From Escherichia phage vB-EcoP-XT32: DNA of 64,000 bases. The first letter of the stretch is position 1, and every line of letters begins with the position of its first letter. The notes below the pieces were generated by a model. The model did no database searches. It worked only from the letters and a program-made list of their open reading frames with translations, and was not told the origin of the DNA. The translations under genes and the position numbers were made by a program. Where the stretch lies: the sequence record OR757435; one strand, given 5' to 3'. This document shows, piece after piece, positions 44,319 through 44,762 of this stretch.

Positions 44319-44762
44319 TTACAAACAGATATAGACAGGTATGTCCATCTGATTTAGGTATTTAAACATTAAAGGTCTTACCTGAGATTGGTAATCTAGT
44401 CCTCCATTGCTACAACCCAGAGGTGTTATGGCTAGAGAGGTGATTCCCTTGTCTTTGTAGGTAAGTAATAGCTTTTGTAAGCCTTGCTCTATCCACTCTA
44501 CCTCAGAACCGTTTCTCCAATGCTTCTTAGTTGGAAAACACAATCCCAGTCTCCCATCATTCAACCTCTGTAGAAGAAGTTGTCCGATCTGGAATCCAGA
44601 GTCGCAAGCAACCTTATACCTTTCAAAAGCTTCAGGGTATCTTCTTTTATACTCCTTGGCTACTCCTGCACCCATTACACCTACAAGGTTTACTGTGCAA
44701 GTTACTGTTTGAGCGTCCACTGTGAACACATTGGCTTTACCTTCGAAAACAATAGCCATCAC
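44319..44762 (-). CDS. macro domain protein, TARG1/DarG-like (ADP-ribose hydrolase family)
   Basis: [46 protein letters not shown] and DIPVYICL align with the TARG1/OARD1-type macrodomain motifs (MGAGIA.FKK.F, LITKK, PRIGCGLDRL). Confidence 0.6.

Follow-up and report, generated by a model that had tools for sequence, protein, structure and literature searches.

The macrodomain of the antitoxin DarG is by itself able to de-ADP-ribosylate single-stranded DNA and to neutralise DarT, as described for T. aquaticus (PMC5179494) and for enteropathogenic E. coli (EPEC; PMC7003065), and free-standing macrodomains with a related function have been described in phages. One of them is PhiKZ gp104, a DarG2-like macrodomain that stands alone and was named AdfM (anti-DarT factor macro; Morgan et al., Cell Rep 2026, PMC13309987). 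It strips DarT2-made ADP-ribose from a TNTC oligonucleotide, an activity impaired by the N23A substitution, and it relieves the toxicity of DarT2; plating on DarTG2 hosts depends on it (PMC13309987). The requirement on such hosts applies to both PhiKZ and PhiPA3, and the chimallivirus set of AdfM proteins consists of PhiKZ gp104, PhiPA3 gp108 and that of Erwinia phage Asesino (PMC13309987). T4 Tk.4, independently named AdfM, was found by transposon screen and knockout to be required on DarTG2-expressing E. coli (10.1101/2025.11.20.689424), and AdfN (anti-DarT factor NADAR) of T-even phages counters DarTG1 (Johannesman et al., Nat Commun 2025, PMC11825919). That orphan phage macrodomains counter DarTG2 is thus not a new idea, having been described in 2025-2026. 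Here we consider a stretch of 64,000 nucleotides from Escherichia phage vB-EcoP-XT32 (sequence record OR757435), called the window throughout, in which a minus-strand gene orthologous to phiEco32 gp37 encodes a predicted DarG-type macrodomain. Sequence, structural modelling and analogy with the systems above suggest that the product is probably an orphan antitoxin enzyme, which would remove the thymine-linked ADP-ribose that DarT attaches to the phage's single-stranded DNA while it replicates.

Over the 1.8-kb region that surrounds the gene, identity is 100% with Escherichia phage vB-EcoP-XT18 and 92-96% with phiEco32, SU10, SGF2, Paul and other Kuraviruses (Gordonclarkvirinae). An earlier note on this DNA, made from the letters alone, had reported a 147-residue macrodomain reading frame at 44319-44762. 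The list of open reading frames contains exactly this frame, on the minus strand, for which the note gave none, beginning with GTG at 44762, and the three motifs quoted from it are exact (residues 28-43, FPTKKHWR at 76-83, and 114-124). Translation more likely begins at the ATG of the next codon (44759-44757), because this ATG overlaps the stop TGA (44761-44759) of the upstream o-spanin reading frame as TGATG, because of the spacing of a GGAG (Table 1), and because the product then has 146 residues, the same length as annotated phiEco32 gp37. The stop/start overlap is a layout typical of translational coupling. Thirty-four synonymous and six nonsynonymous differences separate the gene from phiEco32 gp37 (dN/dS, the nonsynonymous to synonymous rate ratio, 0.038), and it is under strong purifying selection. 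Residue numbers below follow the 146-residue protein.

Several searches place the protein with DarG, at scores well outside chance. Pfam Macro (PF01661) matches residues 23-126 (E=5e-9, 36.6 bits against a gathering cutoff of 22), and the PADLOC DarG model matches at 4.1e-44 over profile positions 6-142 of 329, with positions 143-329 unmatched. The sole NCBIfam match, in a search that left the phosphatase models unmatched, is antitoxin_DarG (NF048014; 3.9e-41, positions 6-144 of 338), with a score of 141.4 bits that lies below the 250-bit equivalog cutoff for the full-length DarG antitoxin. The top phmmer matches in the PDB are the DarG macrodomains of M. tuberculosis (5m3i, 1.1e-26), Thermosipho africanus DarTG (7omu, 2.9e-25) and T. 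aquaticus (5m31, 4.4e-24). An AlphaFold2 model based on 29 homologues (pLDDT 95.9, pTM 0.89) has seven strands of at least three residues and four helices in the three-layer alpha/beta/alpha macrodomain fold, which bears out the fold that had been proposed from sequence. Foldseek comparison of the model with the PDB puts DarG macrodomains at ranks 1-4 (TM-score 0.86-0.92, root-mean-square deviation 1.5-2.6 Å, 33-38% identity), and all 190 matches listed at E<=1e-3 are macrodomains or macrodomain-derived designs. By sequence and by model, then, the phage protein is specifically a DarG-type macrodomain.

Human TARG1/OARD1, which can cleave ADP-ribose linked to thymine or uracil (PMC13036486), is of the same macrodomain subclass, carries its catalytic Lys at the equivalent site and comes next after DarG in the structural ranking (TM-score ~0.82). 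It is, however, a eukaryotic enzyme with 17-19% identity in the structural alignments, and orthology was rejected on a sequence match that is not significant (E ~0.2, 15 bits). The resemblance to TARG1 is at the fold and subclass level only. The earlier description as TARG1/DarG-like therefore holds for its DarG half, by sequence and structure alike, and fails for the TARG1/OARD1-type label (E ~0.2, 19% identity). A specific similarity to Appr-1-p phosphatases was likewise rejected: Poa1p (6lfs, 6lft) matches in sequence at E ~1, and Poa1p-type phosphatases are weaker structural matches (TM-score ~0.81-0.83), ranked below both DarG and TARG1.

The active site was compared with that of T. aquaticus DarG (TaqDarG) by multiple alignment. 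The TaqDarG contacts with ADP-ribose are N8, L9, T20, N22, V31, Q34, T79, G117, G119, N120 and G121 (Jankevicius et al. 2016, PMC5179494); K80 is catalytic, W83 is the proposed thymine stack, and K80A, N22A, K29E and G119E are strongly inhibitory (PMC5179494). Identical residues are found in the phage protein for N8, T20, N22 and V31 (phage N10, T22, N24 and V33), for T79, K80, H82 and W83 (T77, K78, H80 and W81) and for G117, N120 and G121 (G115, N118 and G119). L9 is conservatively replaced by Val, and Q34 by Glu, a residue shared with the type-A bacterial locus L004. At the K29 position the phage has Ala, as does the active PhiKZ AdfM (A30), and at the G119 position it has Ser, where PhiKZ AdfM has A126 and phiEco32 gp37 has Gly. 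K78 (K79 in the 147-residue frame), within FPTKKHW, is the equivalent of TaqDarG K80, EPEC DarG K54 and TARG1 K84; it does not vary among close homologues and hardly varies in the larger set, while N24 (TaqDarG N22) is invariant or nearly so across the homologue alignments. The catalytic Lys and Asp positions that the earlier note had looked to are both occupied, the latter by an Asp at the GGLD position, like that of M. tuberculosis DarG. Because the active-site residues are kept and the Asn and Lys are near-invariant, the protein has every hallmark of an active DarG-type glycohydrolase.

The DarG proteins of DarTG2 systems (T. aquaticus, M. tuberculosis and EPEC; PDB 5M31, 5M3E, 5M3I and 7OMU) have this same fold and active site. 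In contrast to them, the Kuravirus protein ends directly after the macrodomain, without the C-terminal DarT-binding domain, and is an orphan enzyme encoded by a lytic phage: its gene neighbours are a spanin gene and a sigma-factor gene, and there is no adjacent darT. Annotation of the 77.7-kb XT18 genome includes no ADP-ribosyltransferase. A DarT hidden Markov model made from 64 bacterial DarT neighbours of related macrodomain genes, which recovers its positive controls (64/64), gave a best E of 3.7 against the six-frame translation of the phage or the window. Pfam detected no ADP-ribosyltransferase domain in 20 hypothetical or dubiously named phage proteins, a 1,473-residue virion protein among them, and a query with the ADP-ribosyltransferase ART-PolyVal returned nothing from the phage (best E 0.65). 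The possibility of a full DarG antitoxin, or of a phage-borne DarTG module, was rejected since both the C-terminal domain and DarT are lacking.

The closest described counterpart is PhiKZ AdfM. The two are phage-encoded, free-standing DarG2-type macrodomains of ~150 residues, 41% identical along practically their whole length (E 4e-36, Kuravirus residues 2-139 on 1-146), and both match the PADLOC DarG model strongly (4e-44 for the Kuravirus protein and 4e-39 for AdfM). They have in common the active-site residues and the departures from bacterial DarG at K29 and G119, and a cognate DarT is seen in neither phage. They differ in setting, AdfM being imported into the nucleus of jumbo, nucleus-forming myoviruses, whereas the present phage is a 77-kb podovirus without a phage nucleus. 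The PhiKZ protein also has a 9-residue insertion and a longer C-terminus, and it stands further from the bacterial DarG macrodomains (35-38% identity, against 45-48% for the Kuravirus protein). T4 Tk.4 resembles the present protein in being a stand-alone macrodomain of ~155 residues from an E. coli phage, with a legacy 'phosphatase / A1pp' annotation like that of gp37. Close kinship was nevertheless rejected: the two are ~17% identical in the multiple alignment, BLASTP gives E 6e-4 over 42 residues, and Tk.4 matches PADLOC DarG at 1.3e-9. Because the similarity is remote, a Tyr stands in place of the catalytic Lys and the equivalents of T79 and N120 are missing, T4 Tk.4 belongs to another macrodomain lineage, one that has arrived at this function by convergence. 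AdfN offers a parallel in that it too is an orphan phage copy of an antitoxin's enzymatic domain that erases DarT-made DNA ADP-ribosylation, but its NADAR fold is unrelated and its substrate is the guanine-linked ADP-ribose of DarT1, not the thymine-linked DarT2 lesion.

The proposed pathway is as follows. Upon infection of an E. coli cell with a DarTG2-type defence, DarT would be released and would ADP-ribosylate thymidines in single-stranded DNA at the phage forks, such that replication is blocked. The phage macrodomain protein, made with the middle (replication) genes, would bind the ADP-ribose in its macrodomain pocket, and K78, aided by N24 and W81, would cleave the base-ribose bond to yield unmodified DNA. 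Because the DarT-binding C-terminal domain is lacking, the protein would act on the lesion enzymatically only and not by sequestering the toxin, and because its action would be of this kind, activity may be expected against any DarT making thymine- or uracil-linked ADP-ribose. The de-ADP-ribosylation role suggested in the earlier note gains support, by analogy, from PhiKZ gp104 (PMC13309987). The fold, the family, the retained active site, the orphan status, the accessory distribution, the purifying selection and the DarT linkage of the relatives are each observed in this analysis; to these we would add on the strength of the homologues the same substrate and the same role for the Kuravirus protein.

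The distribution of the gene among phages is patchy. Of 98 phage records that match the 1.8-kb region by megablast, 40 cover at least 80% of it, and many others match in two pieces, with 72-75% coverage and 93-95% identity. A cassette containing the macrodomain gene (Table 1) is precisely absent from NJ01, 172-1, IMEP8, MN05, ES17, LAMP, Bas92 and others, and within the BASEL collection Bas90 carries the gene and Bas89, like Bas92, does not. Pairwise alignment with NJ01 shows one clean 463-bp gap, corresponding exactly to the macrodomain gene and spacer, and in NJ01 the sigma-factor ATG replaces the macrodomain ATG at the spanin stop codon. Because this clean gap lies between two copies of TGATGGC, it is concluded that the macrodomain gene is an accessory cassette whose gain or loss went by way of short-homology recombination.

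The gene has also moved between unrelated phages. Escherichia phage vB_EcoM_DE15 (L086 in our set), a 54-kb myovirus of the Chaseviridae, has a copy at 4004-4444 with 81% amino acid identity, annotated as hypothetical and located just upstream of the gene for single-stranded DNA-binding protein. Because synonymous sites between the DE15 and window copies are saturated despite this identity, an old horizontal exchange with strong constraint at the protein level is implied by the sequences. Accessory status, horizontal spread and purifying selection are together as expected of a counter-defence gene.

Bacterial relatives were seen only with an exhaustive HMMER search, in which 6,659 of 1.84 billion representative proteins were homologues at E<=1e-3; a word-indexed search gave only 44, mostly phage-like. 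The best homologues are mostly proteins of ~300 residues with an N-terminal macrodomain and 47-54% identity. When loci were scanned with one genome per species, 80 were obtained from diverse bacteria and a few archaea, and at 64 of these the adjacent gene on the same strand belongs to a single family, DarT. All ten members of that family tested score above the gathering threshold of Pfam DarT (PF14487) and also match PADLOC DarT, and plasmid-borne relatives adjoin DUF4433/DarT genes as well. Twenty-six loci have the canonical architecture, with a DarT of ~200 residues followed by a DarG of ~350. At 38 of the 80, spread over many phyla, the order is macro-first, with a macrodomain protein of ~300 residues followed by a DarT of ~330 (loci drawn from L004-L041, L045, L047, L049, L054, L059, L063 and L068; for example L005:3959-5539 and L007:538-2550). 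This long DarT consists of a PF14487 domain and a C-terminal extension of ~120 residues, and it is divergent, with Pfam scores of 52-100 bits vs 117-229 for canonical DarT. [quoted passage not shown]

Mean identity of the phage protein is 47.8% to the macro-first macrodomains (maximum 54.5%) and 45.3% to the canonical ones. In a simple neighbour-joining tree without bootstrap, which is not to be over-read, the Kuravirus protein clusters with six free-standing sequences from phages or metagenomes, and neither bacterial group includes them. A recent capture from one bacterial DarG clade finds no support in this placement; the family is clear, and the tree points to no particular donor lineage. 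The free-standing forms (<=185 residues, some of which may be contig-end fragments) have Ala at the TaqDarG K29 position in 41 of 62 cases and often Ser or Ala at G119; in two-domain proteins (>=250 residues) Lys is kept at K29 in 57 of 65 and Gly at G119 in 55. The pattern of Ala at the one position and Ser or Ala at the other is a sequence signature of the orphan forms.

Further arrangements were seen among the relatives. A free-standing macrodomain with 57% identity (P0022), from a phage-like metagenomic contig, lies ~2 kb from a small ART-PolyVal (PF18760) gene, the two genes being L090:1599-2015 on the minus strand and L090:4027-4470 on the plus strand, and these may represent a writer/eraser pairing in another phage lineage. 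Some actinophages have distant homologues under features annotated as ADP-ribosyltransferase. DarG-type macrodomains also occur fused to a GreA/GreB-like C-terminal domain (P0079, 365 residues) and to an N-terminal N6/N4 DNA methyltransferase (P0067, 533 residues).

Several considerations weigh against the assignment of a DarT-reversing role. The phage clade is not nested inside canonical DarG2 in the tree, and the nearest bacterial relatives are mostly from non-canonical macro-first operons with a long DarT. The systematic change at two pocket-proximal positions of the free-standing forms could reflect altered specificity. With identities of 41% to PhiKZ AdfM and 38-40% to the DarG macrodomains of solved structure, a shared substrate specificity is suggested but not guaranteed, and the evidence of activity comes from homologues, not from Kuravirus proteins. 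DarG-type macrodomains cleave uracil-linked ADP-ribose on RNA in vitro, and DNA is maybe not the sole substrate (PMC13036486). The literature searched gave no link of Kuravirus or phiEco32 gp37 to DarTG or AdfM. As to the frequency of DarTG2 in E. coli hosts, a Klebsiella plasmid darT-darG DNA query matched none of 5,426 complete genomes, a result that is uninformative on E. coli DarTG2.

Some of these points would fit an eraser of another nucleic-acid lesion, such as RNA-borne ADP-ribose linked to uracil or the lesion that the long DarT makes, that counters a defence other than or beyond DarTG2. Such an eraser is unlikely, although it finds support in the closest bacterial relatives (mean identity 47.8%, maximum 54.5%), which are mostly macro-first with a divergent, extended DarT and with C-terminal halves not homologous to that of DarG, in the systematic K29 and G119 substitutions of the free-standing forms, and in the ability of T. 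aquaticus DarG and TARG1 to cleave uracil-linked ADP-ribose on single-stranded RNA and dU in DNA in vitro (PMC13036486). The gap in identity between the operon types is nevertheless small (47.8% vs 45.3%), the tree gives no specific affiliation, and the long DarTs are still members of PF14487. Moreover, PhiKZ AdfM has the same substitutions and acts on DarT2-modified single-stranded DNA (PMC13309987), the Trp that would stack on thymine and the catalytic Lys are both in place, and T. aquaticus DarG is less efficient on uracil- than on thymine-linked ADP-ribose (PMC13036486). It is similarly doubtful that the whole free-standing lineage, with Ala at K29 and Ser or Ala at G119, is an eraser of broadened or shifted specificity and not simply a clipped DarG2, with a range that may include the long-DarT lesion or uracil-linked ADP-ribose in RNA or dU-containing DNA; if true, this would be a multi-system counter-defence, pointing to a DarT subtype beyond the literature consulted.

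Less probable again is a small-molecule substrate, be it ADP-ribose-1''-phosphate, O-acetyl-ADP-ribose or an NAD-derived immune signal, perhaps handled together with the nearby SLOG protein. PhiEco32 gp37 has been annotated as "Appr-1-p processing enzyme family" since 2008, and other records have "phosphatase" or "hypothetical protein", but these are generic labels carried over from the A1pp/Macro domain and not tests. Poa1p-type phosphatases are among the structural matches at TM-scores of ~0.81-0.83, yet sequence and structure place the protein with DarG and not with Poa1p or YmdB-type enzymes, and the DarG-specific Lys and Trp are kept. According to Iyer et al., Macro, NADAR and SLOG domains of phages co-occur and have soluble ADP-ribose derivatives as their main targets (PMC9503650), and a SLOG/YspA-like gene does lie two genes downstream; the macro and SLOG genes vary independently, however, NJ01 and 172-1 keeping the SLOG gene without the macrodomain gene, and 64 of the 80 bacterial relatives are linked to DarT and not to signalling enzymes. 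A role as eraser partner of a phage-encoded ADP-ribosyltransferase, in self-immunity or regulation, to which the ART-PolyVal neighbour of the 57%-identical protein and the actinophage homologues (H52 and H64) under ADP-ribosyltransferase features might point, is highly improbable, in that annotation, Pfam on 20 proteins, the DarT model (E 3.7) and the ART-PolyVal query (E 0.65) detected no such transferase in the phage, and close relatives lose the macrodomain gene cleanly with the locus otherwise unchanged, which would be hazardous for an immunity gene.

Confirmation of the DarT-reversing role would extend AdfM counter-defence from jumbo nucleus-forming phages and T4 to a genus of 77-kb E. 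coli podoviruses, one that is considered for phage therapy, and would supersede an annotation that says little in dozens of deposited genomes. The field's understanding of DarTG or of macrodomains would be unchanged even so. The useful features of the Kuravirus protein are its closeness to bacterial DarG, greater than that of the characterised AdfM proteins, and a natural presence/absence series in available phage collections: among near-identical Kuraviruses, those of BASEL included, the gain or loss of the gene amounts to a natural experiment on how DarTG2 shapes coliphage host range.

On the minus strand the genes run in the order gp40 homologue, i-spanin/o-spanin, macrodomain, sigma factor (gp36), SLOG-like protein (gp35), deoxynucleoside monophosphate kinase and 5'-3' exonuclease (Table 1). 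Sigma-factor, SLOG-like, kinase and exonuclease genes thus do lie downstream on the same strand, as had been noted, but the macrodomain gene belongs to that middle block itself and does not just precede it. Published studies of phiEco32 and SU10 describe the block as a middle-gene cluster with DNA polymerase and nucleotide metabolism genes, and give tAATGTAtA as the consensus of the middle/late promoters dependent on phiEco32 gp36 (PMC8948821, PMC4281155). The perfect match TAATGTATA is likely the promoter of the block that contains the macrodomain gene.

Table 1. Features at and around the macrodomain gene, with positions in the window
Feature	Position	Strand	Remarks and basis
DarG-type macrodomain coding sequence (predicted), phiEco32 gp37 orthologue, AdfM-like	44319..44759	minus	146 residues; ATG 44759, stop 44321-44319
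Shine-Dalgarno-like GGAG	44767..44770	minus	7 nt 5' of ATG 44759; sequence reading and NJ01 alignment
Accessory cassette, 463 bp	44297..44759	minus	macrodomain gene, 22-nt spacer and first ATG of the sigma reading frame
Direct repeat TGATGGC (7 nt), left copy	44755..44761	minus	bounds cassette; NJ01 alignment and sequence
Direct repeat TGATGGC (7 nt), right copy	44292..44298	minus	at sigma-factor gene start; NJ01 alignment and sequence
ECF-type sigma factor, phiEco32 gp36 orthologue	43652..44299	minus	directly downstream; PHROG 1740 6e-46; phiEco32 and XT18 annotation
SLOG/YspA-like protein (DUF2493, annotated 'GTP-binding domain')	43263..43655	minus	two genes downstream; PHROG 289 4e-25
gp36-type promoter motif TAATGTATA, perfect consensus match	46117..46125	minus	~60 nt 5' of gp40 homologue (start 46058); motif search

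A one-mismatch copy of the gp36 consensus, TAATGTTTA, is found at 44363-44371 on the minus strand, inside the 3' end of the macrodomain gene and ~65 nt 5' of the sigma-factor start; were this site active, expression of the sigma factor would change as well when the cassette is lost. The literature mentions a sigma-70 promoter predicted inside gene 37 for the sigma gene. A consensus scan for sigma-70 promoters found none inside gene 37, the only 10-of-12 match, at 45019-44991, being within the spanin gene. Sites that resemble promoters are as numerous here as expected from shuffled sequence, and they carry little weight.

The SLOG-like protein scores 27.8 bits with Pfam YAcAr (2.2e-6), just below the cutoff of 28.2, and SLOG domains from viruses have been predicted to sense or degrade NAD-derived signals (PMC9503650). 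Its gene is seemingly absent or divergent in LAMP, Bas92 and O18-011, independently of the macrodomain gene. Directly 5' of the macrodomain gene, the overlapping i-spanin/o-spanin pair (window 44759-45278, minus strand) matches PHROG 1152 (Rz-like spanin) and PHROG 2425 and has a terminator-like hairpin (45290-45273) just upstream; the pair is far from the holin and lysozyme genes of XT18 (XT18 36642-37381).

The BASEL paper reports that Gordonclarkvirinae are unusually resistant to restriction-modification and speculates on DNA base modification (PMC11990801). XT18 encodes a dCTP deaminase, a nucleotidyltransferase, ThyX and a cluster of amidoligase, glutamine amidotransferase and gamma-glutamyl cyclotransferase (L084 1435-3339; L085 26186-35760), and if thymine were replaced or modified in the phage DNA this would have a bearing on targeting by DarT.

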